Source: Arcobacteraceae bacterium (GTDB taxonomy: Bacteria; Campylobacterota; Campylobacteria; Campylobacterales; Arcobacteraceae). Taken from it: 17,290 nt of DNA. Below, piece by piece: positions 550 to 17,290 of this stretch (position 1 is its first letter; the number at the start of each line of letters is the position of its first letter). The stretch is from contig JBLWVX010000044.1 of assembly GCA_048268245.1 (NCBI GenBank), positions 1 to 17,290 on the forward strand. Direction: 5' to 3'. A model generated the notes under the pieces. The model saw nothing but the letters and a program-made list of their open reading frames with translations. It was not told the DNA's origin and did no database searches. The translations under genes were made by a program, and so were the position numbers.

Positions 550-567
550 AGTGCATAGAAATGCACT
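550..567 (-). terminator. stem-loop between hypE and hypA (possible terminator or mRNA-stability hairpin)
   Basis: agtgcat-agaa-atgcact 7-bp inverted repeat just after the hypE stop, followed by a T-rich run on the minus strand. Confidence 0.4.
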
Positions 568-572
568 TAGTT

Positions 573-1568: not shown

Positions 1569-1584
1569 CTATTTCCTTTACTTT

Positions 1585-2712: not shown

Positions 2713-2722
2713 AATTCTCTAC

Positions 2723-3004: not shown

Positions 3005-3008
3005 AGCC

Positions 3009-3782
3009 TTATCTCATCTTTCTTTTAAATTCAATCCAATCAATAACTCTTTGAATTGATTCTTTGTCATTAATGTTTACTTCTAAAATATCAACATTTG
3101 GTTTTAGTTTTCTAGCCTCAGATTTCTCTTTTTCTACATCATATTGGAAGTGAGGAAGTAAATCTGTTTTAGTGATCAAAATCAAATCTGCACATCTGAA
3201 CATAACAGGATATTTAGCAATCTTATCTTCACCTTCAGGTACTGATACAAGTACAATATTTAAATGTGTTCCAACATCATAAGAAGCAGGACATACTAAG
3301 TTTCCAACATTTTCTACAAAACAAACATCTAAGTCATCTAAAGGCATATCATGTAAACCTTTATGAACCATAAATGCATCTAAGTGACAAGCTGAACCTG
3401 TTTGAATTTGAGTAGCCTTAATTCCTTTAGCTTTTAATCTATCTGCATCTCTGTTAGTTTCTAAATCACCTTCAACAACACCATATTTAAAGTTTGCTAA
3501 ATCAGACATATGCTCTAAAAGTGTAGTTTTACCACTTCCTGGACTTGACATTAGATTGATACCTAATACACCTTGTTTATCAAAATGGGCTCTGTTATGT
3601 GATGCCTCATGGTCATTTTTATCTAAAATCTTTTTTATTACTGATACTGTTTTACTATCATTTAACTGTGGATTATGATGTAAAGTTTCATGGGCAGCTT
3701 GATGACTTTGGCTATCTCTATGAGAGTGATCATGATCATGATGATGGTGGTCAGTTATTGAACATCCGCAATCTGTACACAT
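3009..3782 (-). CDS. hypB: hydrogenase nickel incorporation GTPase HypB
   Basis: N-terminal CxxCGC, His-rich tract, P-loop SSPGSGKT, CHLDA, ENVGNLVCP and TKTD motifs. Confidence 0.97.
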   Translation of the reverse strand: MCTDCGCSITDHHHHDHDHSHRDSQSHQAAHETLHHNPQLNDSKTVSVIKKILDKNDHEASHNRAHFDKQGVLGINLMSSPGSGKTTLLEHMSDLANFKYGVVEGDLETNRDADRLKAKGIKATQIQTGSACHLDAFMVHKGLHDMPLDDLDVCFVENVGNLVCPASYDVGTHLNIVLVSVPEGEDKIAKYPVMFRCADLILITKTDLLPHFQYDVEKEKSEARKLKPNVDILEVNINDKESIQRVIDWIEFKRKMR

Positions 3783-3925
3783 ATTTGTTCCTTTTATAAT
3801 CTATTTTATTTAATATGAATACTTATTCATTTTTATGTAGTTTAACTCAACTATTATAAATCTATTCTAATTTTATTTATTTCTTATGTATTTTTAGGAA
3901 AAATTAAGATATTTTTGACATATAA

Positions 3926-4254
3926 TTAAATTCTCAAGAACAATCTTTAGCAAATAAAACTACTGAAACTATGACAGAGATTGACAAAGAAGTTAATGCT
4001 ATTAATAAAGCAAATACTGTAAATGTAGCTGTTCAAACTGATAACATTGCTAAACTTGTAGTTGAAAACGCAAACTCAAAAGAGTTTGTAGGTAAAGATG
4101 AAGTTCAGGCAAAAGAATTAACTTCAAGCGATACTACAACAAGTAAAAAGTATGAAGTAGAAACTTCACCAAAACAAAATACAAATAATTCTAATTAACA
4201 ACTAAAGAGGTTAAAGACTCTTAAAATGATGAAGATGAATGGACAAGCTTTTAA
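3926..4254 (+). pseudogene. remnant of a methyl-accepting chemotaxis protein (C-terminal fragment)
   Basis: Frame reads LANKTTETMTEIDKEVNAINKA then NTVNVAVQTDNIAKLVVENANSKEFVGK, resembling the two flanks of an MCP signalling domain without the conserved tip. An out-of-frame NDEDEWTSF* (4225-4254) resembles the NWETF-type tether and follows an in-frame TAA. No sensor or TM region. Confidence 0.7.
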
Positions 4255-4261
4255 GCTTGTC
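4242..4261. terminator. inverted repeat at the end of the MCP remnant
   Basis: gacaagctt-tt-aagcttgtc perfect 9-bp inverted repeat overlapping the relic stop codon. Confidence 0.5.
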
Positions 4262-4287
4262 TTATAAACTATAACTTTGATAAAAAG

Positions 4288-4296
4288 TGTTAAAAT
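4288..4296 (+). promoter_or_regulatory. extended -10 promoter (TGnTAAAAT) for a probable leaderless transcript
   Basis: TGTTAAAAT ends 6 nt before the ATG at 4303; no Shine-Dalgarno sequence in between. Confidence 0.55.
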
Positions 4297-4302
4297 GTTT
4301 TT

Positions 4303-4938
4303 ATGAATTGTAAAAACTGCAACAATAACACTTTTTATCATATTGAAAAAAATTACATTAAATGCAAAAAATGCAATAAAAAATACTCACTAAAAAAACT
4401 ACATACTGATACTCTTATAATAAAAAACTTCTGTGATAATATAAATGCCAATGAATGTAGTAAACAATTAGACCTTAATTATCGTACTGTTAAAAATAGA
4501 TATGATAAGTTGAGATTTAAAATTGCTAAGTTTTTAGAAGAAGAGTATAACAAAAGTATAAAAGACTATAGTGATTATGAAGAGTATTACTACTTCAACA
4601 CAAAACAAAAGCAAAGCAAAAATAAATCCTTATATGAAGCTATAAATATTATGGGCTTTTATTTTGATGAAAAAGTTTATACCCTTTTAATGCCCAAACT
4701 ACCTAAAAGAAATAGTGAAGATACTGAACATTTTAAAGAGTATCTAAACTGGTATAAAATTCACTCTCAAGAATCATATAAAACTAGACTAAAAGAGTTT
4801 TGGCTTTTCTTAGAAGATAGCCTTAGAAAATACAAAGGCTTTAATCAAGACTATTTTTTTTACTATTTAAAAGAGTGTGAGTTTAAATTTAACTATACAA
4901 AAGAAGAGCAAATTAAAATCCTAAATAAGATATTTTAA
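4303..4938 (+). CDS. IS1595/ISXO2 transposase-like protein (Zn ribbon + HTH, catalytic core apparently eroded)
   Basis: N-terminal CKNC...CKKC zinc ribbon, HTH-like NANECSKQLDLNYRTVKNRY, C-terminal YLKECEFKFN resembling the IS1595 family terminal motif. Only 211 aa; no terminal inverted repeats seen. Confidence 0.65.
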   Translation: MNCKNCNNNTFYHIEKNYIKCKKCNKKYSLKKLHTDTLIIKNFCDNINANECSKQLDLNYRTVKNRYDKLRFKIAKFLEEEYNKSIKDYSDYEEYYYFNTKQKQSKNKSLYEAINIMGFYFDEKVYTLLMPKLPKRNSEDTEHFKEYLNWYKIHSQESYKTRLKEFWLFLEDSLRKYKGFNQDYFFYYLKECEFKFNYTKEEQIKILNKIF

Positions 4939-5334
4939 TTACTCCTTATCAAAACTATCTACAATAATTGCACCCATTGAAGCAGGCATTGTAATAACTA
5001 TCAATCTTTTTATAGCAATAATTGGCTCGGTTAGTAAAGGTAGTTTATCAATAGATATTAAAACTAAGGCTACAACTAAGGCTGATATTATATATGCAAT
5101 TATAATTCTTAATATAAAAACAAAAATCCTATGAACAACCTGCCCTTGAAAAACACTCTCATATGCAAAAAGTGCTAAAAAACTTACTGATAATATAAAT
5201 ACTAATGTAAGATTAGAAAAAGGAAGACTTTCACTAATTCTCCAAGCTTCTTCAGAAAATGAAATTGGTACAGCAAAAGCAAAAGAGCCTATTGCAATCT
5301 GCCCAATATCTTTCATATCAATATTTAAATTCAT
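4939..5334 (-). CDS. DUF2391-like integral membrane protein
   Basis: Four hydrophobic segments; GSFAFAVPISFSEEAW and PASMGAIIVD motifs recalled from this family. Confidence 0.7.
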   Translation of the reverse strand: MNLNIDMKDIGQIAIGSFAFAVPISFSEEAWRISESLPFSNLTLVFILSVSFLALFAYESVFQGQVVHRIFVFILRIIIAYIISALVVALVLISIDKLPLLTEPIIAIKRLIVITMPASMGAIIVDSFDKE

Positions 5335-5335
5335 T

Positions 5336-6160
5336 TTAAACCTTCACTTGGTTTTTACCATTACTTTTTGCTTCATAAAGAAGTTCATCTGCACTTTTAA
5401 TGATTTGTTCTTCATCTTTTTTAGAGTCCTCATTACTACTTACACCTATACTTACTGTAATTTTCATATCATCTGCATACTCTTTTTGAATATTTACTCT
5501 TATTTTATCAGCAATCTTAAAAGCATCATGTTTTTTTGTATCTGGAAAAATTACACTTAACTCCTCGCCTCCATACCTAAAAGCAATATCCATACTTCTA
5601 ATACTTTGTTTGATAATCTTTGAAATTTTTGTAAGAACCTCATCACCTTTTTGATGTCCATAAGTATCATTTACATCTTTAAAATCATCAATATCAATCA
5701 TTATAAAAGAAAAAGCACTATTTTTTCTTCTCGCTTTTTCAAAAACTTTTTTTATAAAAATATTTAAAACCTCTCTTTTATATAAAGAGGTTAACTCATC
5801 AATTGTTGCAATTTTTGAGATTGATTCAAACTCATCCTCTAACATAACTTTCATATCTTCTGTAATATTTTTTATGTTTTCTATATAATCTACACTTGCT
5901 ACATTTATCCCAACAGGTCTATTTAGAACCTTTTCTAAACTTTTCATATGCGTAACTAATCTATTCCAAGTATCTTTGGCTTCTTTTTCATCTAACTTCT
6001 TATGTATTAAAACAGATATGATTTTTGAATAAGGATTATTTATTCTTTTTGCAAACTCTTCAATACTATTAGCATTATAAGCTAGTTCATTAATCTTTTT
6101 AGTATCTAGATTTTCTAACTTTTCATTTTTTATAATTGTTTCAATCTGTTCACTACTCAT
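5336..6160 (-). CDS. GGDEF-domain diguanylate cyclase
   Basis: DELTSL, DIDDFKDVNDTYGHQKGD, RxxD I-site (RSMD), RYGGEEL active site, ADELLYEAK; soluble N-terminal domain. Confidence 0.93.
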   Translation of the reverse strand: MSSEQIETIIKNEKLENLDTKKINELAYNANSIEEFAKRINNPYSKIISVLIHKKLDEKEAKDTWNRLVTHMKSLEKVLNRPVGINVASVDYIENIKNITEDMKVMLEDEFESISKIATIDELTSLYKREVLNIFIKKVFEKARRKNSAFSFIMIDIDDFKDVNDTYGHQKGDEVLTKISKIIKQSIRSMDIAFRYGGEELSVIFPDTKKHDAFKIADKIRVNIQKEYADDMKITVSIGVSSNEDSKKDEEQIIKSADELLYEAKSNGKNQVKV

Positions 6161-6723
6161 TTATGTAACCTTTTTTATCTATTTTATAAACCAAAATTCT
6201 CATTAGTAATTTTATTCTTATTTGCATAAGAATTATCTAATTTAAGACTTTTTTTTAATAACTCTAAATAATAATTATGAATTGTATCAAATTCTGATTT
6301 AGGAGGTATTTCTTTTATACTACTAGCATTTAAAAAAACAAATTATCAATTTAAATCACTACAATAGTCTTTATATCTATTTTTGTTAATTATATCATTA
6401 ATATAAAAAAACAAAAAAAACAAGCTAAATTAACTGAAAAGATTGAATACCACAAAAAAACAATCAAATCTATTCCATGCAACAGAAAAAATAAGTTCAG
6501 GGAACCTTGACTTTAAAATAAAAGCAAGAAAATAAAGGTGTAGAGTTTACAATAAAAATAAATCTTAGTTAAAGAAATATGTATGTACAATATCTGCTAA
6601 TATATATAAAACCAATAATGAAAAAATCACTTTGTTTGTATTCATAAAAATTCCTTACTATATATTTTAGCAATTCTATATTAACTTTTCGTAAACAGTA
6701 AATACCTATAACACCGATGTTAG

Positions 6724-7770
6724 TTATATACTGTGTCGATTTTGTGCATTATCTGATATATCAAATAACACTCTTTTTTCTTTTCTTCTTGGAACATACT
6801 TATAATACTTTTGCAAAGTTATAGATGGATTTTTGTGTCTTAACATAAAACTTACCCATTCCAAACGCTCACCCATAGAAAGCTTCAAACTTGCAAAAGT
6901 ATGTCTAGTTTGATGAAAACCTCTATATTCAATATTTAAAGATTTTAAAATCTTTTTATAATAATATGTTAAATCACAAGTACTATTAAATCTATTTCCA
7001 CGAGCTGTATAAAAAACATATTCTCTTAATCCAGTTCGCTGTAATTGATTTTTTAAAAAAGGCAGTAACTCCTCAGGTAAATCTATAATAGCTTTAGAAC
7101 TAAAAGTCTTAGGTAAATCTTCAATACCATTCATTATAGTTTTATTAACATCTATTTCCATTTTTTTGAAATCAATATCAGTCCATTTTAAAGCTATGAT
7201 TTCCCCTGCTCTCATACCAGTAAGTAAAGCTACTGCAATTAAATTTTTAATATGTGAATCATAATTTAATAAAAGTTTTAACTCATCATAATTAAAAGGA
7301 TTTATCTCATATTTAGATTGGAATTTAGGATTAGATATTTCATTAAATGGATTACTTTTAATTACTCTATTTAACAATGATTCTTCAAATACATCTTTTA
7401 AAATTGCCTTAGCTATTCTAAGTGTACCAGTACAAGGTAAAAACTTATAAAAATCTTTTAGAAATAAAGGTGTAACTTCTACAACTGTAATATTTTTAAA
7501 GTATGGTTTTATTCTAGTTTTTAGAATAGAATTATAACTTCTTAAAGTACTATGTTTTAAAGTCTTACTTTTTTCTTCCATTACATTTTCACAATGTTCT
7601 ACTACACTAATTAAAGTATTATTGTTTATTCCAAATTTGTTAAAGAACTCATCATTTTTATAGTATGACTTAACTAATTTTCTATTATTTGTTGTATCTT
7701 CTAGTTTAGTTGATATTCTACGACCATTAATACGAACATATAATTTACCATTTCGATTATAAAATGTCAT
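6724..7770 (-). CDS. tyrosine recombinase / phage integrase
   Basis: Catalytic set: R (TGMRAGE), K (LPKT), HxxR (HQTRH), H (MLRH, where LGH is more usual), Y (KYYKY). N-terminal arm-binding-like and SAM-like regions. Confidence 0.93.
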   Translation of the reverse strand: MTFYNRNGKLYVRINGRRISTKLEDTTNNRKLVKSYYKNDEFFNKFGINNNTLISVVEHCENVMEEKSKTLKHSTLRSYNSILKTRIKPYFKNITVVEVTPLFLKDFYKFLPCTGTLRIAKAILKDVFEESLLNRVIKSNPFNEISNPKFQSKYEINPFNYDELKLLLNYDSHIKNLIAVALLTGMRAGEIIALKWTDIDFKKMEIDVNKTIMNGIEDLPKTFSSKAIIDLPEELLPFLKNQLQRTGLREYVFYTARGNRFNSTCDLTYYYKKILKSLNIEYRGFHQTRHTFASLKLSMGERLEWVSFMLRHKNPSITLQKYYKYVPRRKEKRVLFDISDNAQNRHSI

Positions 7771-8054
7771 GCGATTTCCCTTTTAAATTGTTCTATCGCA
7801 CTTTCTATAAATACTATTTTATGCTTACCTTGCTTAATTTCTTTTCTATAGTGAACATTTAGTTTAAATCTACCATCATTTATATAATTATAAATAGTTG
7901 GTGGTGTCTTATCTAAATATTCAGCTACATTTTTTACTTTTGTTAAATCTCTTTTTTTTCTAAGTTCTTGGTTTAACATTTGAACTTCTTTTTTTAACTC
8001 TATTACTTCATCTAATAAAGATGGTATTAAAGATAATGTTTCTTCTATTGTCAT
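7767..8054 (-). CDS. excisionase-like HTH DNA-binding protein
   Basis: VKNVAEYLDKTPPTIYNYINDGRF winged-HTH pattern after a short coiled coil; ATGA overlap with the integrase. Confidence 0.75.
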   Translation of the reverse strand: MTIEETLSLIPSLLDEVIELKKEVQMLNQELRKKRDLTKVKNVAEYLDKTPPTIYNYINDGRFKLNVHYRKEIKQGKHKIVFIESAIEQFKREIA

Positions 8055-9241
8055 TTTTTATCTCTGTATTTATCTTTTAAAACAATCTTATTATGATTAG
8101 TTCCATACTTAGGAATTGAATTTAAAAAATTATGTGCTTTTTCTGCACCATTAGACACATATGTAAACTCTGTAGTTTGAAGCTCTTTAATAATTTGTTT
8201 AGCTTTTGAGTAAGATACTGTGTCACAGTCCATATCTGTATATTCTATATATATACTATCACTTATTTCAATATGTCTTATATCTCTTTTTGTTTCTTCT
8301 TTAACTGGTTGATCCAGGTTCTTTGATTCTTCATATTGTTCTTTAAATGATTTAGGTTTTTCATGAGTTAAATTTTTTAAATCTTCTAATTCTTTTTTTA
8401 ATTGTTCATTTTCTTCTTTTAACTTTTTATTTTCATTTTGAAGTTTTACTATCTCATCAATATCTTCTATAGGAACTATTGAACCAGTACCAATCTGAAT
8501 AAATGTTTTATTTAACATATCATCTTTTATTATCTTAACTTCTTTATCATTTTTGTTAATTTCTTCTTTATGCTCATCAGGTTTTGTATTAAAGTTTGAA
8601 ACTTTTTCTTCTTTTTTTCCCGCGGGAAAATTTTGTTTATAATCTTTTATTTCATCTCTTGTAATTTCTTCATTTACATATTTATCATAGATTTCACATT
8701 GTAAATCTGTATCTTTAATTCTTCCTATTTCTTCAAGAACTGAAAGAGGAACAGTTAATCTATCAGCTTCTAAAAGTGTTACGATAGATGGGTCTAATCT
8801 TAAAGAAGAAAAACATTTAGAAATAAAAGTTTGTGATTCGCCTATAGCTCTTGCTAAATGTTCTTTTTTCTTATATCTTCCAGAGTTCCACATTTCGCCT
8901 ATTTTTTTCGCATACTCAAATGGTGTTAAATCTTGTCTTTGTCTTGCTTTTACAAGAGAAATTTCATCTATTTGAGCTTCATCAAAATCAAATATTTGTA
9001 TTTTAATTGTTGTATGATTTAATTTATTACAAGCTTTAAATCTTCTCTCACCATCTACAATCATATAACCCTTATGAAATTTAACAACTGCAACAGGTTC
9101 TAATAATCCATGTATCTTAATAGAACTTGCAAGCTCATCTAAATTATTAAAAGTTTTTCTTGGTTGATTTTCATTTGGATATACTGTTTTGATATCCACC
9201 TCTAAAAAGTCTTGTAATTGTGTATCCATTAATTTATTCAT
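8051..9241 (-). CDS. ParB/Spo0J-family protein (CTPase domain + HTH) with long C-terminal extension
   Basis: PNENQPRKTF, LASSIKIHGLLEPV and IVDGERRFKA (GxRR motif); HTH KEHLARAIGESQTFISK; C-terminal coiled coil LQNENKKLKEENEQLKKELEDLK. Confidence 0.9.
   Translation of the reverse strand: MNKLMDTQLQDFLEVDIKTVYPNENQPRKTFNNLDELASSIKIHGLLEPVAVVKFHKGYMIVDGERRFKACNKLNHTTIKIQIFDFDEAQIDEISLVKARQRQDLTPFEYAKKIGEMWNSGRYKKKEHLARAIGESQTFISKCFSSLRLDPSIVTLLEADRLTVPLSVLEEIGRIKDTDLQCEIYDKYVNEEITRDEIKDYKQNFPAGKKEEKVSNFNTKPDEHKEEINKNDKEVKIIKDDMLNKTFIQIGTGSIVPIEDIDEIVKLQNENKKLKEENEQLKKELEDLKNLTHEKPKSFKEQYEESKNLDQPVKEETKRDIRHIEISDSIYIEYTDMDCDTVSYSKAKQIIKELQTTEFTYVSNGAEKAHNFLNSIPKYGTNHNKIVLKDKYRDKK
8615..8630. 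promoter_or_regulatory. perfect 16-bp palindrome, candidate parS-type ParB loading site
   Basis: TTTTCCCGCGGGAAAA, GC-rich core in very AT-rich DNA, inside the ParB gene (codons F205-K209); similar in form to parS (TGTTTCACGTGAAACA) and the Noc site (TATTTCCCGGGAAATA). Confidence 0.65.
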
Positions 9242-9243
9242 AA

Positions 9244-9477
9244 TTAACCCCTTTTATTAAATTTATTAACATACTGCTCAAATCTAGTTTTTAGATGTTC
9301 TTTTGCTTCATCTATAGATTTAAAACTTTGAAATCTTGTTTCTTTAAATGTGTAATCAAAAAATACAAATGTTGCATTTTGAGAAAGTCTTATTTTTCTT
9401 ATTTGAAAAACTATTTTGTCTTTTAAAATATAGTAGATTGTAGTTTCATCATTTTTTAGTGTTAGTACATTTAGCAT
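9244..9477 (-). CDS. hypothetical phage protein (77 aa)
   Basis: Fills the gap between rep and the ParB gene with 1-2 nt spacing; its 3' end carries the AAGGGG RBS of the ParB gene. Confidence 0.7.
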   Translation of the reverse strand: MLNVLTLKNDETTIYYILKDKIVFQIRKIRLSQNATFVFFDYTFKETRFQSFKSIDEAKEHLKTRFEQYVNKFNKRG

Positions 9478-9478
9478 A

Positions 9479-10786
9479 TTAAAATCCTAATTGTGAAGCT
9501 GTTTTAACTACATTCATTGTTTTAAACTCACCAGTATCTATGTCTATATATTCTTCCTCTACTGTATATAATTCATCACTAGTTAAAGGCTGTATTTCTA
9601 CAGTAGTTAAGAGATCTCTTTTAATCATTTCATTTTGAGTAACTAGATAGTGCTTATTATCAATTACATTAGTATCTAAGCTAGTTAGTTCTCTATAATA
9701 TCTTTGAAGTTGGTAATCATTTAATTTTGATGGAATTACTGGAACTAACATGAATCTATTTTGGCTATCATTGAAAGTATATTTTTCAAACTCACTTACA
9801 TAAACTTGTAGAGCTGTTTTATAATCTTCTTTTTTATATGCTAGTTTGAAAGTATCATTTTTCTTAATTCTACTATAGATAATTGAGTCAGTATTTTTAG
9901 CCCATGATATAACTTCATCTACTGTATCATTCTCAATATCGTACTTCATGTACATATGCATATTACCATCAAATAAAGTTTGAATTTGATTCTTTTCCCA
10001 CATTTTAGAAGCTTCTAAAAGTGAAGTATTAGAGGGTAGTGAGTGTCTTACTTTTCTATAAACACCTAGTGTAATTGAAAGACTTCTTGATGTTAAAAAT
10101 CTTCTAACTTTGTTTTTAATATACCAGTATGAAGCGTATTGTAAAGAGTTATCATTCTCATTTTTGAAAGTTTTTGTGATGTATTTCATGATATATGCAA
10201 CAGCACCACCTGCTGACTTATACCATGTGTATCTAAAGTCTAAAGACTTTTTATTGTTTCCCCATCTTACTTTGTTTGTAAAGTATTCATAAAACTTATT
10301 TTTTACTTCTAAGATATAATCTTTTGGTAAGAATAGCATAGCGTGCATATGTGGAACACCGCTTTTATGAGGTTCATATACTCTAAAATATATTAATCCC
10401 TTTCCATATTCTTTTTTCATTTTTCTAAATACATTTAATCCAGTAAATCTATTCCAAATCTGTGTCATATCTTTTGCAGTTTGATTAGGCTTAATTAGTA
10501 AGTTACCTTTAGAGTCCGTTTTATGATACTTTGCAGGAGCTGTAAAAGTTAAAAATACTGGTTTTAAATTCATTTCTTTTGCTAAGTCAAAAATAGAGTT
10601 AATTCTATTATTCATTTCTGCAAAATATCTTTTAGGATTTATTACAGCAGAGTGTATAAAGTCTAAAGCATCTTTATTTTCATTTTCAAACTCAAAGTTT
10701 GAAAGATTGTTTTTTATCCAGTCTTTTTGAAACTGTATCTTTTCATCTATATATTTGATATCATATTTGCTTAATCCGTATTTCAT
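9479..10786 (-). CDS. rolling-circle replication initiator (HUH endonuclease, two-tyrosine phiX174 A / P2 A type)
   Basis: Motif 1 FLTFTAP, motif 2 EPHKSGVPHMHAM, motif 3 AVAYIMKYITK; AAGGGG RBS upstream. Confidence 0.9.
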   Translation of the reverse strand: MKYGLSKYDIKYIDEKIQFQKDWIKNNLSNFEFENENKDALDFIHSAVINPKRYFAEMNNRINSIFDLAKEMNLKPVFLTFTAPAKYHKTDSKGNLLIKPNQTAKDMTQIWNRFTGLNVFRKMKKEYGKGLIYFRVYEPHKSGVPHMHAMLFLPKDYILEVKNKFYEYFTNKVRWGNNKKSLDFRYTWYKSAGGAVAYIMKYITKTFKNENDNSLQYASYWYIKNKVRRFLTSRSLSITLGVYRKVRHSLPSNTSLLEASKMWEKNQIQTLFDGNMHMYMKYDIENDTVDEVISWAKNTDSIIYSRIKKNDTFKLAYKKEDYKTALQVYVSEFEKYTFNDSQNRFMLVPVIPSKLNDYQLQRYYRELTSLDTNVIDNKHYLVTQNEMIKRDLLTTVEIQPLTSDELYTVEEEYIDIDTGEFKTMNVVKTASQLGF

Positions 10787-10835
10787 TTATTACCCCTTTA
10801 AAATCTATTACATAACTATTATAAAAGTAATCAAG

Positions 10836-10894
10836 GGGAGCGACTCAAACAGACAAGCTGTTTGCTTTCGCTCCCTCTGGGGCGCGGTGCGCCC
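10836..10894. other. GC-rich double hairpin, candidate double-strand replication origin
   Basis: gggagcga(10836-43)/tcgctccc(10868-75) encloses caaacag(10846-52)/ctgtttg(10858-64); then gggcgc-ggt-gcgccc (10880-94); lies directly upstream of rep. Confidence 0.6.
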
Positions 10895-10912
10895 ACTTTT
10901 ATCCCCTATTAA

Positions 10913-11092
10913 CTATTTGAATAAGAAAGGTGCTTTAATAACAAGTTCACCCATTCTTAATCTAATTTTTTTCATTCTTTTTAAATCTTCTTTTGATTTA
11001 TTAGATTTACTTTCCAATTGTTTGTATTCTTTTAATAAAGTCTCTTTTTCAATAAATAAAATAAAAAGATTTGTTAATGTATTTGTTTTCAT
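10913..11092 (-). CDS. hypothetical basic 59-aa protein (not in ORF track)
   Basis: Hand translation MKTNTLTNLFILFIEKETLLKEYKQLESKSNKSKEDLKRMKKIRLRMGELVIKAPFLFK*; AAGGA RBS; ATGA overlap with the upstream ORF. Confidence 0.7.
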   Translation of the reverse strand: MKTNTLTNLFILFIEKETLLKEYKQLESKSNKSKEDLKRMKKIRLRMGELVIKAPFLFK

Positions 11093-11421
11093 AAATAAAG
11101 TCCTTTATAATCTTCAAATTTGAAGATGAACTTATTAAAGTAGTTTATTCTAGAATGCAAATCTTGATTAAATTCTTGTGTAAAGACATAAAAATTATCA
11201 TTTATTTGTTCACTCATTCTTTGCATATTTAAATACTCATTTTTAATATCTTCAAAGAACTCTTCATCTGTTCTTGGGTCATTTTGTGCTTCTTTTACAA
11301 TTTGTCTTACTGCTACAGTTGATAATAGTAATCCTGCAAAAGGTAATAAAGGTGTTGGAATATCAACTGAACTAATCAGATTATGAGCTGAACCTATATA
11401 GTTTTTAATTTTTTTTATCAT
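11089..11421 (-). CDS. hypothetical 110-aa phage protein with one hydrophobic segment
   Basis: AAAGGA RBS, co-oriented directly after the secretin gene; hydrophobic LLPFAGLLLSTVAV. Confidence 0.7.
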   Translation of the reverse strand: MIKKIKNYIGSAHNLISSVDIPTPLLPFAGLLLSTVAVRQIVKEAQNDPRTDEEFFEDIKNEYLNMQRMSEQINDNFYVFTQEFNQDLHSRINYFNKFIFKFEDYKGLYL

Positions 11422-11433
11422 GTTATATCCTTT

Positions 11434-12669
11434 CTAATCACAAAAGTTTAAATACTTACAAGTATCAAACTCTCTTAAAATTAACGATTCATTCTTATTA
11501 TTGAAATTATCTAATACATTAAAATCTATAATCTCAATAAGCACAGTTGTTGTAGTTGTTTTATCATCTAGTTTTTTAGATTTAAAAAAATTTCCTATTA
11601 CTGGTATTGATGAAAGTAAAGGTACATTTTTATAAGTTTCAATTTTTGAATTGTTATTGATACCTGATAATAAAAAGTATCTTTTATCTTTATCTAGTGT
11701 AATATCTTGTTTGATTGTTTTCTTTGTAGTAATTGGAAGATTGTTATCATTACTTAGTAATTGTGAGTACACAAAATCTAAATCTAAATTTACTAAATCA
11801 TTTAGTATTTTTGGTTTTATATTTAGTCTTAATCCAACATCTTTATATTCAAATGAATTTACTTCTTTAGTTTTAGTATCTTCTATTTGATTACTAGTTG
11901 TTAAGTATGGTATGTTTTGAGAACTATCTAAGATAAAATCTTTATTATGTTCTAGATTTATTATTGTAGTTGTAAGATTAGTAGTAAAAGAGTTTGTATC
12001 TAAAAACTTTATTACACTATTTACATTATCATAGTCAGCTTTATTACTGATATTTATTGCAGAACCTAAAAATATATCAAATACAGCTTTTTGTCCTTTA
12101 TTTAAATTTAAATCTATTAGACTTTCATGCTCTTTTAAATCATTTAAATTTGTTTCAAAAATTGAAAGTTTTATTTTCATCTTATTTGGAAGAACATCTA
12201 AAAGCTCTATATTTCTTTTTATTTGTGTATATTTTTCATAAGTGCTATCTATTGCTAACTTATTTGCTTGTTTTAAATATGTATAATCAACTTTATAAAG
12301 TTTACAAATAGAGTCAATATCTTTATAGTTTAAAAAGTTCAAATGGATATATCGAACCTTAGTTTTTTTCTCTTTTTCTTCATGCTCTACAGTATCTATT
12401 TTATTTATATAGTAAATACCATTTTTAATACTAATATCATAATCATTAGCTTTTAGAACTGTAGTTAAAAATTTATAATTGTTTTGAGTTGGTTTATAAA
12501 ATACTGTAATATCTTTCATCATCTTATCATTGATTACAAAAGGCTTATCAATATTTGATAGTACATCAACTGTAAAAAGTTTTAAATTTGTTTCTAAGTA
12601 GTTAAAATCATTTGCTTGTAAAGCTGTCAGTAACGCTAGTGAACAAATCGTTTTCTTCATTGTTTTCAT
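11434..12669 (-). CDS. secretin (pIV/GspD-like) phage extrusion channel
   Basis: Signal peptide, YKDVGLRLNIKPKI and VPLLSSIPVIGNFFKS secretin signatures. Start moved from TTG 12687 to ATG 12669, which follows an AAGGGG RBS. Confidence 0.9.
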   Translation of the reverse strand: MKTMKKTICSLALLTALQANDFNYLETNLKLFTVDVLSNIDKPFVINDKMMKDITVFYKPTQNNYKFLTTVLKANDYDISIKNGIYYINKIDTVEHEEKEKKTKVRYIHLNFLNYKDIDSICKLYKVDYTYLKQANKLAIDSTYEKYTQIKRNIELLDVLPNKMKIKLSIFETNLNDLKEHESLIDLNLNKGQKAVFDIFLGSAINISNKADYDNVNSVIKFLDTNSFTTNLTTTIINLEHNKDFILDSSQNIPYLTTSNQIEDTKTKEVNSFEYKDVGLRLNIKPKILNDLVNLDLDFVYSQLLSNDNNLPITTKKTIKQDITLDKDKRYFLLSGINNNSKIETYKNVPLLSSIPVIGNFFKSKKLDDKTTTTTVLIEIIDFNVLDNFNNKNESLILREFDTCKYLNFCD

Positions 12670-13678
12670 TTTTACCCCTTTCTTCAAATAAATTAAATTT
12701 ATCTATTGTTTTTATTGCATACTTGTTATTTACTACTTTTAAAAACTTTGTTTCATATTCATTATTTAAGATATAAAATAAGTAAGATTTTTCATATACA
12801 TTCCCATTTATAAAGCAAAGGTTTTTATTACAAATCATTTCAAAGTATTGTGAGTCTTTAAAATCTTTAGTTGGTGTTGTTGCTGCTCTTTTAGGAATGA
12901 TTGAATTAGATTGATTTTTGTTGTTATCATTTACAACATTTTCAGGTTCAGAAGAAAAAGATTTAATAAAAAAATATCCTCCAATAATAAGAAATGCAAA
13001 GATACCAAGTGATATAAGTAAATAGTGAAGTACTAGTGATTTTTGAGTATTGTTATCACCTGAATGATAAAGTTTAAAAGACTCTTTGATAATTGGTATC
13101 TTTTTAGTATCAGCTTGTTGAGTTTTAAACATTTGATAGCCAATAAATTTATTATAAATCATACTAGTATTAAAAAGTTTTCTTGATGCTGGTCTTGCCT
13201 TATAGAAGAACTCAGTAAATACTTTATAGTTTTTGTGAACTAAAGGAATATCTTGAGTAATTAAAATAATATCTTGATAAAAGTGTCTATGATAGGATAA
13301 CCACCATTCTAAAGTATCATCATGTTTTTTTAAGTAATCTTGGCACTCATCAATTACAATAAGTGTATTTACAAATTTAGTATCTGTAATTTTATCTACT
13401 TCTTCTATTAATTCATTATCTGTAAAACCTCTTTTTTTACACATATGTAAGTGTTTAAGAATTTTTTTGAATTCATCAAAATCAAATTGATAAGTATTTT
13501 CAAATTTATCAAATTTAAATTCATTTAAATTAGTTAAGCAAGCTTTATATTGAGTTTTTGAAATTGCATATTTTTTATATTTTGAATATTTTCTATTTCT
13601 AAGAAAATTAACAATAATATAAAAAACACCATAATAACTTTTTCCACTACCTGGTATACCAGTAACAAACTGTATCAT
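12608..13678 (-). CDS. Zot-like / pI morphogenesis ATPase
   Basis: Walker A GIPGSGKS at the N-terminus, Walker B LIVIDECQ, HRH and ILITQ motifs, single TM helix then periplasmic tail; overlaps the secretin gene. Confidence 0.93.
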   Translation of the reverse strand: MIQFVTGIPGSGKSYYGVFYIIVNFLRNRKYSKYKKYAISKTQYKACLTNLNEFKFDKFENTYQFDFDEFKKILKHLHMCKKRGFTDNELIEEVDKITDTKFVNTLIVIDECQDYLKKHDDTLEWWLSYHRHFYQDIILITQDIPLVHKNYKVFTEFFYKARPASRKLFNTSMIYNKFIGYQMFKTQQADTKKIPIIKESFKLYHSGDNNTQKSLVLHYLLISLGIFAFLIIGGYFFIKSFSSEPENVVNDNNKNQSNSIIPKRAATTPTKDFKDSQYFEMICNKNLCFINGNVYEKSYLFYILNNEYETKFLKVVNNKYAIKTIDKFNLFEERGKNENNEENDLFTSVTDSFTSK

Positions 13679-14085
13679 TTTGTAAGCCTTGCAAAATCAA
13701 CAATAGAGTTAGTAATGTAAAAATATACAGATATTAAAAATCTTGCACCAACTGCAGTTAAATATGTAATTAAAATCATTACTAAAGAAGGACCCACTAG
13801 ATTCCAAGCATCAATAATTCCTATGTTATAAGCTATAGCACTAAATACTATAGTTACACAGTCATTAACTCCACCGGCAGTACCATTAGCTAAACTTTCA
13901 ATGATATTTATAATATTTTTAATTGATTCATACATAGTAAAAGTTACAGTAAGCATTGTAGTTACAAAAGAAATTACCATACCAAAAAGTAAAGCTCTAG
14001 CAGTTAAAAATAAAATACCTAAAGCAATATCTTTACCAAACTTACCTACTAAAAAAGTTCCTACTGTTGCTACTGGATTAATCAT
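13675..14085 (-). CDS. pVI-like minor coat membrane protein
   Basis: 136 aa, largely hydrophobic, between pIII-like and pI genes, ATGA overlap with pI. Confidence 0.7.
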   Translation of the reverse strand: MINPVATVGTFLVGKFGKDIALGILFLTARALLFGMVISFVTTMLTVTFTMYESIKNIINIIESLANGTAGGVNDCVTIVFSAIAYNIGIIDAWNLVGPSLVMILITYLTAVGARFLISVYFYITNSIVDFARLTK

Positions 14086-14097
14086 TTAAAAACTCCC

Positions 14098-15768
14098 TTA
14101 AAATAATCTATTTGCTAAAGATATAACTTGAACTGAAATTTGCCATAAAGCAATCATTAAAATAATTTGAAAAAACAAAACAACAATTGGTTTTAATGTA
14201 GACATTGGTGTAACAAAATCAAAAGAAACTTTACTACCAAATATATCAAGAGATAAACACTCTTCTAAATTTGGATTTTTAGAATATGAAATAGGTGTAA
14301 ACTCTAAACCACCTTCAAAAATTTGTTTATAATCATTTACTTGTGTTTCAAGTTGATTAAATGAAGATTCCATATCACTAAATAATGTTGTAAAATCTGT
14401 ATTTATCTTGTCAAACTTAGTATTTAAATCATTTAATTTTTCTTCATCAGCAGTATTTAAAGAGTTCTTTATATCTTCTAAAGTTTGATTTGTAGTATCT
14501 AATTTACTATCTATACTTTGAGTATTGTTATTTATAGATGTAGCAGTACTATTTAAGCTATCCAAAGAGCTTTCAAGATTACTATTATCATTAATTGGTT
14601 GTTCTACTTCTTGGGGTGGTATTGGGTCAGGATTAGTAGTATCACATAAACTAGTATCATCATCATAAATATCAGCAATTCCATCTAAATCACAATCTTC
14701 ATGACAAATAGGTGAACCAGTTAAATCTGTACCAGTTTCAATAGTACCTATAGGACATTCAAAACCTTTTACACAACCATTGTCACCACTTGTATAATTA
14801 ACTTCATCACAACCTCTATCACATGTAAAAGTAGTATCAGTACATTTTAAACTAGGAGCGCCGTCACCACAATCACTAACATAATAATCTAATTCACATG
14901 GTCTATCAGTTGTACCAGTTCCAGTACCGTCATCAGGATTTGAAGTATCACCACCTCCACCAGTACTAGTACCAGTTCCACCTTGTGCAGGAGTTCTTGT
15001 ATCTTGATTTATAGTGCCATCTGGATAATATGATACATAAGTACCATCACTATAGTCAGTTCTTGAACTTCCATCTAAATTAGTAGTAGTAACAGAACCG
15101 TCAGCATTAACTACTATACTATCAACAATAGTTGGGTCAATAGGCATAGTATTAGTATCAGGGTTTCCATCACTACTATAATCTATATGACAAATGGGAT
15201 TACCAAATAAATCTGTACCAGTTTGCACAGTTCCTGCAGGACAAGTAATTTGTGGTTGTGAAACTGGTAAACAAAATTGTTCACCCTCTACTGTTCCAAG
15301 TTCAAAACCTTCACCACATAAAGGAATACCATCAGGGTCAAAACCAGTTGTCCCCTCGCCTAAATCGGTACATACACCATATCTATAATCTTGATTAGAA
15401 GAACAAGAACATGTATATCTTCCATCTAATCCAACTGTACATGTTTCATTTGTATCAGGATTTACATAACTAGGTGGTTCAGGCTCAACATGTCCATCAT
15501 CGATAGGATGACAAGATGTGTAAACTGTAGAATAAGAAAGTCTAAATTTCCAATAACCATCAGCAGAACTATAAGAACATGAACCGACAGCATATTTTGA
15601 ATTTGAAGTATATGTTTCTCTATTAGAATTACAATGCGATTCACTTGTTCCAGACTTATAGACAACAGTAGTATAATATCTATCAACTTTAAGTTCTTCA
15701 CCCTCAATACAAGTAGCAAAAGAAAATGTATTTATAAATAATATTAAAAATATTGATTTTTTTAGCAT
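14098..15768 (-). CDS. pIII-like adsorption protein
   Basis: Signal peptide, Cys-rich domains, Gly/Thr/Asp linker, coiled-coil region, C-terminal TM anchor; sits before pVI and pI. Confidence 0.85.
   Translation of the reverse strand: MLKKSIFLILFINTFSFATCIEGEELKVDRYYTTVVYKSGTSESHCNSNRETYTSNSKYAVGSCSYSSADGYWKFRLSYSTVYTSCHPIDDGHVEPEPPSYVNPDTNETCTVGLDGRYTCSCSSNQDYRYGVCTDLGEGTTGFDPDGIPLCGEGFELGTVEGEQFCLPVSQPQITCPAGTVQTGTDLFGNPICHIDYSSDGNPDTNTMPIDPTIVDSIVVNADGSVTTTNLDGSSRTDYSDGTYVSYYPDGTINQDTRTPAQGGTGTSTGGGGDTSNPDDGTGTGTTDRPCELDYYVSDCGDGAPSLKCTDTTFTCDRGCDEVNYTSGDNGCVKGFECPIGTIETGTDLTGSPICHEDCDLDGIADIYDDDTSLCDTTNPDPIPPQEVEQPINDNSNLESSLDSLNSTATSINNNTQSIDSKLDTTNQTLEDIKNSLNTADEEKLNDLNTKFDKINTDFTTLFSDMESSFNQLETQVNDYKQIFEGGLEFTPISYSKNPNLEECLSLDIFGSKVSFDFVTPMSTLKPIVVLFFQIILMIALWQISVQVISLANRLF
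14695..15243 (-). repeat. duplicated 21-aa Cys module within pIII (copies at 15181-15243 and 14695-14757)
   Basis: CPAGTVQTGTDLFGNPICHID vs CPIGTIETGTDLTGSPICHED, 15/21 identical; share the 17-nt string taaatctgtaccagttt. Confidence 0.85.
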
Positions 15769-15777
15769 GATTCATTC

Positions 15778-15900
15778 CTAGCTTTTAGCTAAAGAAATAG
15801 CACCAAAAACTGGAACTAATATCAAAGATATATTAAAAAAAATACTAAAAAAGTAATCAAATACTACATCATTTGTAAGTTCTATTATGATTAAATTCAT
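15778..15900 (-). CDS. small membrane protein, pVII/pIX-like minor coat candidate (40 aa, not in ORF track)
   Basis: MNLIIIELTNDVVFDYFFSIFFNISLILVPVFGAISLAKS*; ATGA overlap with the upstream ORF; ends 9 nt before the pIII start. Confidence 0.75.
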   Translation of the reverse strand: MNLIIIELTNDVVFDYFFSIFFNISLILVPVFGAISLAKS

Positions 15901-16043
15901 TTCTTACCACCTATTGAAACTGCAAGATATACAGCAAAGAAAAGCCATGTAAAACCTATTAATGACCCAGTAAATGCCATCATGAAGTTATAATCTTGTA
16001 AGTTCATATTTAAATAATTTGCTATATCTTGACTTGAATTCAT
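15897..16043 (-). CDS. small membrane protein, pVII/pIX-like minor coat candidate (48 aa, not in ORF track)
   Basis: MNSSQDIANYLNMNLQDYNFMMAFTGSLIGFTWLFFAVYLAVSIGGKK*; AAGGGG RBS; single TM with basic C-terminus. Confidence 0.78.
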   Translation of the reverse strand: MNSSQDIANYLNMNLQDYNFMMAFTGSLIGFTWLFFAVYLAVSIGGKK

Positions 16044-16045
16044 TT

Positions 16046-16168
16046 TTAACCCCTTGCTACTGATATTGCTTTATTAATAGCCCATAGAATCGAACAATAA
16101 GCCAACAAAGAAGAAGAAATAATAAGCATATTTTCTTTTGAGATAAAAAAAGTTTCTAAAACTTCCAT
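16046..16168 (-). CDS. coat-protein-like small membrane protein (40 aa, not in ORF track)
   Basis: MEVLETFFISKENMLIISSSLLAYCSILWAINKAISVARG*; AAGG RBS; acidic N-terminus, TM helix, basic amphipathic C-terminus. Confidence 0.72.
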   Translation of the reverse strand: MEVLETFFISKENMLIISSSLLAYCSILWAINKAISVARG

Positions 16169-16205
16169 ATTTAAACCTTATTTTTTAAAACTTAAATATA
16201 AAAAT

Positions 16206-16253
16206 TTTATTAGAGTGAGGTTATTTAATTAGTTCTTTGCTCACTCTAATAAA
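16206..16253 (-). terminator. 14-bp perfect inverted repeat after the major coat gene (terminator or processing hairpin)
   Basis: tttattagagtgag (16206-19) / ctcactctaataaa (16240-53), 20-nt loop; same position as the central terminator after gene VIII in Ff phages. Confidence 0.6.
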
Positions 16254-16264
16254 TGAATTTATGA

Positions 16265-16384
16265 TTATTTACTAACCATTCCAATAACTCTTTTAACACC
16301 CCAAATACCACCATAGGCACCAATAATTAAACCACCAACAGTCATAACAGCAGATGTATCAAATGCTAATGTAGTTAAATCCAT
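16265..16384 (-). CDS. major coat protein candidate (pVIII-like, 39 aa, no signal peptide; not in ORF track)
   Basis: MDLTTLAFDTSAVMTVGGLIIGAYGGIWGVKRVIGMVSK*; strong AAGGGG RBS; acidic N-terminus, Gly-rich TM, basic C-terminus; followed by a strong hairpin. Confidence 0.82.
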   Translation of the reverse strand: MDLTTLAFDTSAVMTVGGLIIGAYGGIWGVKRVIGMVSK

Positions 16385-16400
16385 AATTTTCCCCTTGTTT

Positions 16401-16625
16401 GCTCTATCCTAGAGCCTAATTTTAATTTTGTAGAATGCACAAAAAATATACACTCTATCAAACCAAAATCGTTACAAATCGCCTTATATTGCTTCATAGG
16501 TTTAGAAAGGTTATAAGATTAAATTACAGCCTTTCGCCCTATCGGTTGAACGCACATTCTTAAATTACTGGAGGATATTTTTACTTATCGAACTTAGTTT
16601 CATTCCAGTAATTTAAAAATCGTGC
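16401..16625 (-). other. structured intergenic region with four successive hairpins
   Basis: Stems at 16552-16625, 16496-16542, 16427-16462 and 16401-16415; two use G-T/U pairs that form only on the minus strand. Confidence 0.65.
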
Positions 16626-16629
16626 AAGA

Positions 16630-17022
16630 TTACTTTTTATCTACTATTACTAAGTTCGCGTCATTTATTTTATATGTTGTTTTCTCTTTTGTATTAAGAA
16701 TTGGTGCTAAAATTTCTTTACCTCTTAAAGGTTCATAGATATTTAGTTTATTGGCAATATCATCTTCACTTTCACAAGGAATAGAAATTACTTCTTGAAT
16801 AACCTTATCAACTAGTCTGATATTGCCACCTAACTCTTTTTCAACTTGTACCGTGTTCATAAAGAACAGTTTTACACTATGACCGTATTTAAACGCTCTG
16901 TTATTATCATCAACACCCTCACCTGCAACTGTAAAGTCTACATTGTCTAACTTTCCATAGATGAAAGTTCCATGACCTTGTAATTGTGGTGTTTTAATTG
17001 TTTCTAAATTTTTGTTTTCCAT
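16630..17022 (-). CDS. putative ssDNA-binding protein (pV-like)
   Basis: 130-aa soluble, beta-strand-rich sequence with aromatic and basic residues; first gene of the structural cassette; AAGGGG RBS. The call is mostly positional. Confidence 0.55.
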   Translation of the reverse strand: MENKNLETIKTPQLQGHGTFIYGKLDNVDFTVAGEGVDDNNRAFKYGHSVKLFFMNTVQVEKELGGNIRLVDKVIQEVISIPCESEDDIANKLNIYEPLRGKEILAPILNTKEKTTYKINDANLVIVDKK

Positions 17023-17054
17023 TTTTAACCCCTTGTTAAATTATATTTATTTAC

Positions 17055-17117
17055 TTACCCCTTTAAACTAACGAATCAGGCGGGGTAAAGTGCCTAATCC
17101 GAGTGAGATAACTCACT
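17055..17117 (-). promoter_or_regulatory. hairpin plus H-type pseudoknot in the 5' leader of the pV-like gene
   Basis: Minus strand: AGTGAG-TTAT-CTCACT, then CGGATTAGGC-ACTTTACCCC-GCCTGATTCG-TTAGTTTAAA-GGGGTAA; loop TTACCCC pairs with downstream GGGGTAA. Confidence 0.65.
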
Positions 17118-17251
17118 AGAAAGAACTTGTAAAAGTGCTTTATAGAAAATTAATAAGTTAGTTATTGAAAATTTTTAAAATAATGGAATTAATATTTATA
17201 TAAATATATTAATATCTAAGTGTATATACCCCTTTTAATATTTTGATTTTT

Positions 17252-17260
17252 TGTTATAAT
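17252..17260 (+). promoter_or_regulatory. extended -10 promoter (TGTTATAAT) pointing out of the window
   Basis: Perfect TGnTATAAT with a second TATAAT at 17264-17269; divergent from the phage structural operon. Confidence 0.45.
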
Positions 17261-17290
17261 TCTTATAATTAAAATAAATTACAAATATTT

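Follow-up and report, generated by a model that had tools for sequence, protein, structure and literature searches.

A probable 'Amplinoviridae' prophage in an Arcobacter-family genome, with a candidate replication origin, an orphan ParB and patches shared with a co-resident prophage

Organization of the Prophage Genes

Contig JBLWVX010000044.1 (C44) of an Arcobacteraceae bacterium carries an integrated element with the gene set of a filamentous phage, here called prophage A. The window analyzed is this entire contig, 17,290 nucleotides (nt) of a 2.68-Mb assembly of 57 contigs. Sixteen open reading frames (ORFs), all on the minus strand, run head to tail and unbroken from position 17022 down to 6724, mostly with overlaps of 4 nt or gaps of a few bases (Table 1). 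Their products are, in order, an OB-fold (oligonucleotide/oligosaccharide-binding fold) protein, a coat candidate of 39 amino acids (aa), three small membrane proteins, pIII-like, pVI-like, pI/Zot, pIV, o110 and o59, Rep, o77, ParB, a helix-turn-helix (HTH)/xis-like protein and an integrase. Protein families were assigned by Pfam and PHROGs profile searches of the window ORFs. An original prediction, made from the letters of the window, had listed a morphogenesis cassette with its own secretin, an HUH Rep, a ParB-family gene, xis and integrase; by the ORF list and the profile searches all of these are present, co-oriented and unbroken. The proteins have the lengths of their homologues (pI, 356 aa compared with 352-376; pIV, 417 compared with 379-431; Rep, 435 compared with 430-470), so that no sign of a frameshift was seen.

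Table 1. Features of the window, listed along the minus strand from the contig end to the host junction, followed by the patches common to prophages A and B
Feature	Position	Strand	Basis
A+T-rich contig end	17158..17290	.	No real match in 5 same-genus genomes; no overlap with contig ends
Non-coding leader with 16-bp palindrome AGTGAGATAACTCACT (17102-17117)	17023..17157	-	Conserved with prophage B and the G057 prophage
OB-fold protein, first gene, 130 aa, candidate single-stranded DNA-binding protein (gene V analogue)	16630..17022	-	AlphaFold, Foldseek; no family match
Imperfect hairpin, 74 nt, between OB-fold and coat genes; candidate terminator, packaging signal or minus-strand origin	16552..16625	-	DNA fold
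Major coat candidate, 39 aa	16265..16384	-	phrog_2186 'virion structural protein' 1.8e-5 (weak score)
Hairpin AGTGAG...CTCACT directly 3' of coat gene, candidate terminator	16214..16245	-	Sequence reading, genome pattern scan
Three small ORFs with one transmembrane segment (40, 48, 40 aa), candidate minor coat	15778..16168	-	One hydrophobic segment each
pIII-like adsorption protein, 556 aa, apparently chimeric	14098..15768	-	Signal segment 5-22, C-terminal anchor 522-552
pVI-like multi-pass membrane protein, 136 aa	13675..14085	-	Several hydrophobic segments; no family match
pI/Zot-family assembly ATPase, 356 aa	12608..13678	-	PF05707 5.7e-16; phrog_197 8.5e-25
pIV-type secretin, 417 aa, N-terminal signal-like segment	11434..12687	-	PF00263 2.7e-21; phrog_1012
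Accessory ORFs o59 (10913-11092) and o110 (11089-11421)	10913..11421	-	ORF list
G+C-rich palindrome GGGCGC-GGT-GCGCCC between o59 and origin hairpin	10880..10894	.	Terminator-like match, predicted stem
Candidate plus-strand origin: 40-nt hairpin (10875-10836), then CTTGATTACTTTTA (10835-10822)	10822..10875	-	About 35 nt upstream of rep start codon
Rolling-circle Rep, 435 aa, two-tyrosine HUH superfamily	9479..10786	-	PF05840 Phage_GPA 2.8e-20; phrog_91 'nicking at origin' 1.9e-25
o77, 77-aa ORF, in block common to prophage B	9244..9477	-	No family match
Orphan ParB-family protein, 396 aa (ParB_N, HTH, coiled coil)	8051..9241	-	ParB_N 1.6e-16, HTH_ParB 2.7e-5
HTH_17/excisionase-like protein, 95 aa, 4-nt overlap with integrase	7767..8054	-	PF12728 3.6e-7; phrog_66 'excisionase and transcriptional regulator' 1.6e-5
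Tyrosine integrase, 348 aa	6724..7770	-	PF00589 1.2e-19 and two SAM-like N-domains; phrog_1 1.1e-56
Integrase-proximal end (attL side)	6698..6723	-	Host homology ends 6697/6698
Patch A/B, leader	17019-17157		88% DNA identity to C31
Patch A/B, pIII N-terminal domain	15327-15750		86.6% DNA identity to C31
Patch A/B, o110	11110-11437		91.8% DNA identity to C31
Patch A/B, ParB and o77	8026-8464 and 8558-9489		94-95% DNA identity to C31

The same gene order (OB-fold, coat, small ORFs, pIII, pVI, pI, pIV, Rep, often followed by xis and integrase) was found in nine other fetched loci, one of them from a Sulfurimonas metagenome-assembled genome (MAG). Loci named below are L017 (genome G032, contig C2), L024 (G057, C1), L021 (G025), L022 (G024) and L003, the locus of a second prophage, prophage B, on contig C31 of the genome studied here (G000). 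Scanning IMG/VR with a single pI sequence gave nothing; with a pI alignment, the scan gave 49 contigs of 5-18 kb, many of them partial. Genes in these uncultivated virus genomes (UViGs) were counted by phmmer with the window proteins at E ≤1e-3. The secretin had a match in 46 of the 49, each time adjoining pI, Rep in 39 and the integrase in 19. Because catalogued relatives have the same gene set, the module set, which had been predicted to be atypical, is the normal one for the lineage, and only ParB is unusual.

The first gene product was modeled by AlphaFold as an OB fold, with a predicted local distance difference test (pLDDT) score of 76. All top Foldseek matches of the model were PriB or SSB proteins, the best with an E value of 4.2e-4 and at template modeling scores of merely 0.3-0.47, and with moderate confidence the protein is read as a candidate single-stranded DNA (ssDNA)-binding protein. 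The coat candidate has an acidic N-terminus, a Gly-rich hydrophobic core, a basic C-terminus and no leader peptide; it is 50-56% identical to ORFs of 38-43 aa in six related loci. Homologues of the small membrane ORFs lie at the same place in L017, L019, L021, L022, L018 and L004, and two of these ORFs, s48 and s40a, each had a match in 32 of the 49 IMG/VR relatives. In L017, L022 and L020, the place of the pVI-like protein is taken by an ORF whose product has 33-40% identity to it. In pI, Walker A and B motifs and one membrane segment (residues 213-242) were recognized, with G7, K13, D110 and E111 invariant in 11 sequences. The secretin matched phrog_1012, 'protein IV of M13', at 7.6e-39 over positions 9-396 of 403.

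Between pIV and Rep lie the accessory genes o110 and o59, neither of which had a match in any of the 49 IMG/VR relatives (phmmer). The o110 protein is 86.5% identical to an ORF on C31 and 68% identical to an ORF of the G057 prophage. In a 1403-nt contig from a marine metagenome (X3 record 19), position 10910 is followed by 3 other letters and then by 11435, so that the 524 nt with both genes are missing; close relatives that lack o59 and o110 thus exist in the sea.

With regard to non-coding DNA, the segment 16385-16629 folds with a minimum free energy of -26.9 kcal/mol (z -2.45), and 3 of 200 shuffles fold as well. An Rfam search gave no match at E ≤0.1. A promoter scan was discarded as evidence, since it returned 61 sites compared with 80.5 in shuffles, i.e. 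fewer than by chance. Separately, a 548-nt contig from a run guessed to be RNA spans 16560-17107 at a depth of 159, a mere hint that the first gene of a relative is abundant there.

Rep and the Candidate Replication Origin

The Rep protein contains the motifs FxTxT (F78/T80/T82), HUH (H146/H148) and Y198-x-x-K201-Y202, which are invariant in 11 of 11 aligned homologues. The invariant motif that accompanies the hairpin upstream of rep, named in short CTTGATTAC, occurs in its full form, CTTGATTACTTTTA, a single time in the window. Ten other distinct related loci have one copy each, in every case a short way upstream of rep. In all 11 loci a hairpin of 30-45 nt directly precedes the motif. The 11 hairpins differ in sequence among the phages; when each was compared with 200 shuffles and with 200 windows of its own locus, it folded better than no fewer than 199 in either set. 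The combination of a covarying hairpin and, behind it, a conserved single-stranded motif would fit a rolling-circle origin, and the element is regarded as a candidate for the plus-strand origin. We take the CTTGAT core of the motif to resemble the CTTG/AT nick sites of phiX174 and pC194-type origins.

With the phiX174/P2 gpA family (PF05840), the window Rep shares the HUH motif and the tyrosine spacing Y-x-x-K-Y. However, it is shorter than P2 gpA, matches positions 282-471 of an 852-position PHROG profile, and its best identity to any phage record is 28%.

Integration Module and Host Junction

The integrase has 42-44% identity to its counterparts in the G032 and G057 prophages, and its pairing with xis as in the window is also present in L017, L024, L003 and L019. 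In G025 (L021) and G024 (L022), the first gene is preceded by the xis-like and integrase genes, which are divergently oriented. Because xis and int are displaced in these two loci, the integration module must have moved within the lineage.

Positions 1-6160 of the window hold host genes, namely hypA, hypE-like, hypD, hypC, hypB-like, two unknown ORFs, a DUF2391 membrane protein and a GGDEF cyclase. This flank is conserved in five of five other genomes of the same genus, and the match ends at 6697/6698, 26 nt past the integrase stop codon. The element had been predicted to begin at 6724 and to measure at least 10.4 kb. The host junction puts the start at 6698 and the size at a minimum of 10.6 kb up to the contig end. 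In the junction alignment, the empty site of G055 reads TTTTCGTAAACA followed directly by AAACTTTCATATAAT, just upstream of a gene for a 99-aa membrane protein, whereas in the window TTTTCGTAAACA is followed by GTAAATACC. No tRNA gene is present anywhere in the window. The comparison with the empty site therefore places the insertion in an intergenic region, outside a tRNA gene. Beside the GGDEF gene, positions 6526-6697 form a short stretch that is kept in all five genomes of the genus and may contain a minus-strand ORF for a hydrophobic peptide of 26 aa; the phage inserted alongside it.

Affiliation with Catalogued Inoviruses

Within the host family, 184 species genomes were searched for homologues of the window pI; 30 of them, the present one among these, have a homologue, and they are distributed over 12 of 22 genera. 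Of 401 genomes sampled across the phylum, a pI profile had matches in 70, which belong to 22 of 64 genera and to 9 of 14 families. The genomes of the relatives measure 9-11.5 kb. Contigs of three metagenomes (two marine, one wastewater; three studies) carry pieces 85-99% alike to prophage A. A 33-nt match of 97% in G166 was considered as a clustered regularly interspaced short palindromic repeat (CRISPR) spacer and rejected, as it lies in plain A+T-rich DNA with no repeats. No isolated phage is close: among 50,697 GenBank phage records, the best match to pI has 29% identity and covers 45% of the protein, and the best match to Rep has 28% identity. This bears out the earlier statement that no well-characterised filamentous phage was known from this host group. 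Literature searches on filamentous phages and Inoviridae of Arcobacter returned nothing on the subject, the accessible part of PMC3781098 included.

Two entries in the tables of Roux et al. 2019 (PMC6813254) correspond to IMG/VR relatives of prophage A. Sp_2538571020_ALJJ01000013, from Campylobacter sp. (10,193 nt, genome 2537561772) and classed 'Amplinoviridae:Sf_1', is L039. Sp_2577266260_Z059DRAFT_JABW01000010_1.10, from Arcobacter cibarius (14,426 nt) and classed 'Amplinoviridae:Sf_7', is probably L082. For both, the tables list iPF_00003 (Zot), iPF_00002 (secretin, 753 sequences), iPF_00075 (rolling-circle replication 'Phage_GPA', 274 sequences) and iPF_00011 (Y-recombinase). The window pI, pIV and Rep matched L039 with E values of 9e-58, 5e-28 and 3e-25, and L082 with 2e-37, 8e-40 and 4e-25. 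Over 5001 nt, L082 is 100% identical to G005, a genome of the host family of the window. According to the accessible text of a 2024 study of Sulfurimonas phages (PMC11531552), 'Amplinoviridae' comprises large genomes from deltaproteobacterial and Campylobacterota hosts, with no isolate. Prophage A shares the traits of a diderm host and a comparatively large genome, with no less than 10.6 kb flanked by hyp and GGDEF genes, where the envelope type is taken from the taxon. From 6698 to at least 17290, the window is very probably an integrated inovirus of the lineage provisionally named 'Amplinoviridae' by Roux et al. 2019, in a host of the Arcobacter family. The forecast of an intact, undescribed inovirus lineage held in part: the element is an integrated inovirus whose genes for morphogenesis, replication and integration look like a full set, none of them broken. 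It failed on novelty, since the lineage is catalogued in Roux et al. 2019 and in IMG/VR; an already-catalogued, uncultured lineage gains a fresh member with an intact-looking filamentous phage.

Several points weigh against this assignment. Equal size (14,426 nt) is all that links L082 to the A. cibarius entry, and the placement in 'Amplinoviridae' was made by homology to listed members and not by the bipartite gene-content network clustering of the authors. Repeat searches within the window detected no attachment (att) repeat, the right end lying beyond the contig. The contig stops 268 nt upstream of the first gene, which leaves the right att site and the right host junction off the contig; because the contig has no sequence beyond the window, completeness is not demonstrable at this end. 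A tblastn search of this assembly gave no match to the two genes (99 and 156 aa) beside the empty site of G055. Finally, the window contains no repressor gene, whereas six relatives (L085, L083, L078, L052, L019 and L024, in the last at 16501-16815) carry a divergent CI-type repressor upstream of the first gene.

Prophage A is probably cut by the contig end. The terminal segment from 17158 is probably still phage DNA; positions 17150-17290, like C31 1-440, gave just short chance matches in the five genomes of the same genus. Neither the end of C44 nor the start of C31 overlaps with any other contig end of the assembly. The smallest contig in the assembly measures 6.3 kb, and we suspect that short contigs were dropped. 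The 9-mer GTTAGTTAT, present at 6719 and 17157, was rejected as an att site, as its recurrence is within chance for A+T-rich DNA and it misfits the empty-site sequence. In the G032 prophage (L017), the nearest complete relative, an 18-bp direct repeat, TAGTTAATAAATAGTTGA, at 4632 and 14016 bounds 9.4 kb and leaves 724 nt upstream of the first gene. That prophage sits between a SurA-like gene and a response-regulator gene. In relatives with a repressor, genes for an Mrr-like restriction endonuclease or a SLATT-domain protein sometimes come next, possibly as defence cargo.

The truncated view of the right side bears on the question of whether prophage A is mobile. It could be a cryptic prophage whose genes look intact but which is fixed in the chromosome, for example by loss of the regulatory end or of the right att site, and which forms no particles. 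Neither the right end nor the repressor nor the att sites can be seen, and the host genes expected past the site are missing from the assembly, for which deletion would be an explanation as well; some defective inovirus prophages are reported in the available portion of the Sulfurimonas study (PMC11531552). Opposed to this are the 16 ORFs, all open and of homologue length, and the intact origin-like element. In addition, identities of 86.6-95% in the patches common to C31 argue for recent recombination between replicating or co-resident genomes, and the metagenome pieces indicate that close relatives circulate. An immobile remnant is accordingly possible but rather unlikely, and an intact-looking 'Amplinoviridae' prophage is preferred.

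Patches Shared with Prophage B and the Orphan ParB

Prophage B occupies C31 421-12050 on the plus strand. It has the same architecture, likewise lies at a contig end, and is followed by a Ham1-family host gene. Its genes encode a first protein of 135 aa, pIII (546 aa), pI (376 aa), secretin (379 aa), Rep (463 aa), o77, ParB (486 aa), xis and integrase. Over 8.7 kb it is 89% identical to the prophage of G057, which is another species of the genus. The core proteins of prophages A and B are only 23-36% identical (pI, 29%; pIV, 28%; Rep, 29%; integrase, 36%), in contrast to the four patches of high DNA identity. The first patch, the leader, corresponds to C31 421-560. A run of about 75 nt within it is almost invariant in three phages (prophage A, prophage B and the G057 prophage), the first genes of which are only about 23% identical. 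The o77 protein is 93.5% identical to C31 8881-9114 and 91% identical to an ORF of the G057 prophage, and ParB is 97% and 92% identical, in two pieces, to the ParB of prophage B. At the start of C31, positions 1-130 of L003 contain three copies of a word of about 16 nt, TTGT(A/T)CAA..TTAAA, which could be operators or iterons of prophage B; downstream lies an ORF for a very basic protein of 92 aa (L003 151-429) with no family match.

The pIII-like protein was compared in parts. Residues 1-206 are 65% identical to the C31 protein and 58% to that of G057, whereas residues ~411-551 are 31-40% identical to L020, L022 and L019. By these identities, the window pIII appears to be a chimera of a B-type N-terminus and an A-type C-terminal part. 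The gene also contains an internal 93-nt repeat (14665-14757 and 15151-15243, 73% identical), and the protein has two copies of the Cys-containing motif CP.GT..TGTDL.G.PICH. The genes o77, ParB and o110 are missing from A-type relatives; the G057 phage has o77 and o110 and no ParB. On the simplest reading of these distributions, an A-type backbone would have acquired B-type parts by recombination in a doubly lysogenic cell.

No ParA-like ORF was found by Pfam and PHROGs scans of 6698-17290, and neither ParB nor o77 had a match in the 49 IMG/VR relatives (phmmer). ParB proteins of the same clade, 41-51% identical over the N-terminal 200 aa, occur in 13 other genomes of the host family. Only one of these 13 genomes (G023) also has a pI match; its ParB gene, which is broken, is on a different contig. 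In three of three loci examined among the 13, the clade ParB adjoins a ParA-type ATPase, in islands with methylase or integrase genes. The tables of Roux et al. 2019 (PMC6813254) contain one inovirus family of seven ParBc/KorB sequences. Its absence from the 49 relatives, the ParA-flanked clade and this small catalogued family make ParB a rare accessory, and no new kind of thing.

As a candidate parS site for ParB, just the leader palindrome at 17102-17117 was found, which is common to prophage B. Both phages with ParB have the palindrome, AGTGAG-N4-CTCACT; the G057 phage, which has no ParB, does not have it in intact form. A pattern scan for AGTGAG-N(0-30)-CTCACT gave four sites in the genome, three of them within the two prophages. 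The fourth, on C40, lies in an unrelated hairpin. The C40 segment (10650-10790) is an intergenic, nested, G+C-rich hairpin (... CACCCCTCGTGGGT ... GGAGTGAGTAACTCACTCC ... ACCCACGAGGGG ...) in a genome of 27% G+C and has no relation to the prophages. ParB itself contains a GERRFKA stretch, which we presume to be the motif for cytidine triphosphate (CTP).

Orphan ParB and o77 might form a shared control or maintenance module of the two co-resident phages, in which a KorB-like protein acts in the absence of ParA and binds the leader palindrome in place of a CI-type repressor. We put this forward as a speculation that is doubtful at present. If it is true, ParB could silence the structural operon or partition replicative forms, and could thereby let two divergent inoviruses live together in one cell or keep each other out of it; by the same traffic of recombination, the pIII receptor domain would also have passed between prophages A and B. 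To our knowledge, ParB-based control of inoviruses has not been studied.

The shared patches also raise the question of whether prophage A is autonomous. It could depend on prophage B, or compete with it, by way of the common leader, the ParB/o77 block and the pIII N-domain, and would then be a hybrid or satellite. The four common patches, the restriction of the intact palindrome to the ParB-bearing phages and a ParB without the ParA that flanks its relatives would all suit such a dependence. Even so, it is improbable, somewhat more so than the control module just described: for structure, assembly, replication and integration, prophage A has a full set of its own genes, which diverge from those of prophage B; bounded A-type prophages without any B patch exist, such as that of G032; and the marine variant dispenses with o59 and o110. 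An A-type inovirus with exchanged parts is the preferred interpretation.

Discussion

From the genes of prophage A we infer a cycle of the following kind, in which the prophage may still be active. The tyrosine integrase and the small HTH protein would excise and integrate the genome, at a site in the promoter region that separates a membrane-protein gene from a small conserved host ORF. The two-tyrosine HUH Rep would nick the plus strand at the conserved CTTG/ATTAC-type motif behind the hairpin just upstream of rep and so start rolling-circle replication. The OB-fold product of the first gene would coat the single strand. At the inner membrane, the leaderless 39-aa coat protein, the three small membrane proteins and the pIII-like and pVI-like proteins would assemble on the ssDNA, driven by the pI ATPase, and the filament would leave through the phage-encoded pIV secretin without lysis of the cell. 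The four patches (leader, pIII N-domain, o110, o77 with ParB) would have been placed on the A-type backbone from, or be held in common with, the inovirus on C31.

Secretins and Zot-like ATPases are also found outside phages, and this would be compatible with a non-viral integrative element in which the two form a secretion device. Although the accessible text of PMC11531552 likewise reports no particles for any member of the lineage, such an origin is highly improbable in view of the full-length match of the secretin to the phage pIV family (7.6e-39), its place in a conserved block with coat-like, three small membrane, pIII-like, pVI-like, OB-fold and rolling-circle Rep genes, and the phage-like size of the related genomes given above.

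The closest relatives of prophage A are the host-family prophages of G032, G156, G025, G155, G024 and G183 (L017-L023) and the UViG L038. Gene order is the same in all of them, pI is 45-54% identical in L017-L023 (tblastn, BLASTP) and 51% in L038, and Rep reaches 58%. The origin motif of the window is also present in L017-L021 and L038. Unlike prophage A, these relatives lack ParB, o77 and o110, and the N-terminal parts of their pIII are unrelated to that of the window. L039 and L082 have, as the window does, diderm Campylobacterota hosts, sizes of about 10-14 kb, a Zot pI, a secretin, a Phage_GPA-type Rep and a Y-recombinase. They are without ParB, o77, o110 and o59, and are catalogue sequences only, with no isolates or experiments. 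Their pI proteins are only 41% and 33% identical to the window pI, below the 50% genus line quoted in the available part of PMC11531552. The Sulfurimonas MAG locus L004, from the same phylum, has the order coat, small ORFs, pI, pIV, Rep and integrase and a pI of 35% identity; no ParB was found in it with the window query. The portion of PMC11531552 at hand places 16 Sulfurimonas viral operational taxonomic units with 'Amplinoviridae' and describes some hosts with two distinct inoviruses.

The Ff phages of E. coli (M13, f1 and fd) are chronic and filamentous and encode pI, their own pIV, pIII, pVI, a small coat protein and an ssDNA-binding protein, for all of which prophage A has counterparts or candidates. 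In contrast to prophage A, Ff phages are not integrative and have neither integrase nor ParB. Their gene order is II-V-VII-IX-VIII-III-VI-I-IV, and their Rep belongs to another family than that of the window. No Ff record reached an E value of 1e-3 with the window pI. The nearest isolated phages by pI (tblastn) are Vf33, Vf12 and VALG_phi8 of Vibrio, with a Zot-family pI beside a minor coat gene. Here the pI match is the 29% identity over 45% of the protein given above (E 2e-5), the hosts are gammaproteobacterial, and the genomes measure 7-8 kb.

What is new in prophage A is the candidate origin upstream of rep, the divergent second prophage on C31 with its four near-identical patches, and the rare orphan ParB. 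The hairpin-plus-motif element provides a specific candidate origin, open to testing, for the group as a whole. The four patches, in prophages otherwise so far apart, represent a clean natural module exchange in one cell, including the receptor-binding part of pIII. The lineage is common, with a pI relative in about one in six sampled Campylobacterota genomes, yet the accessible text of PMC11531552 knows of no cultured member. Nothing in prophage A alters the current understanding of how inoviruses work, but a cultivable host with two intact-looking members of the lineage would provide a practical entry point to an uncultured group.

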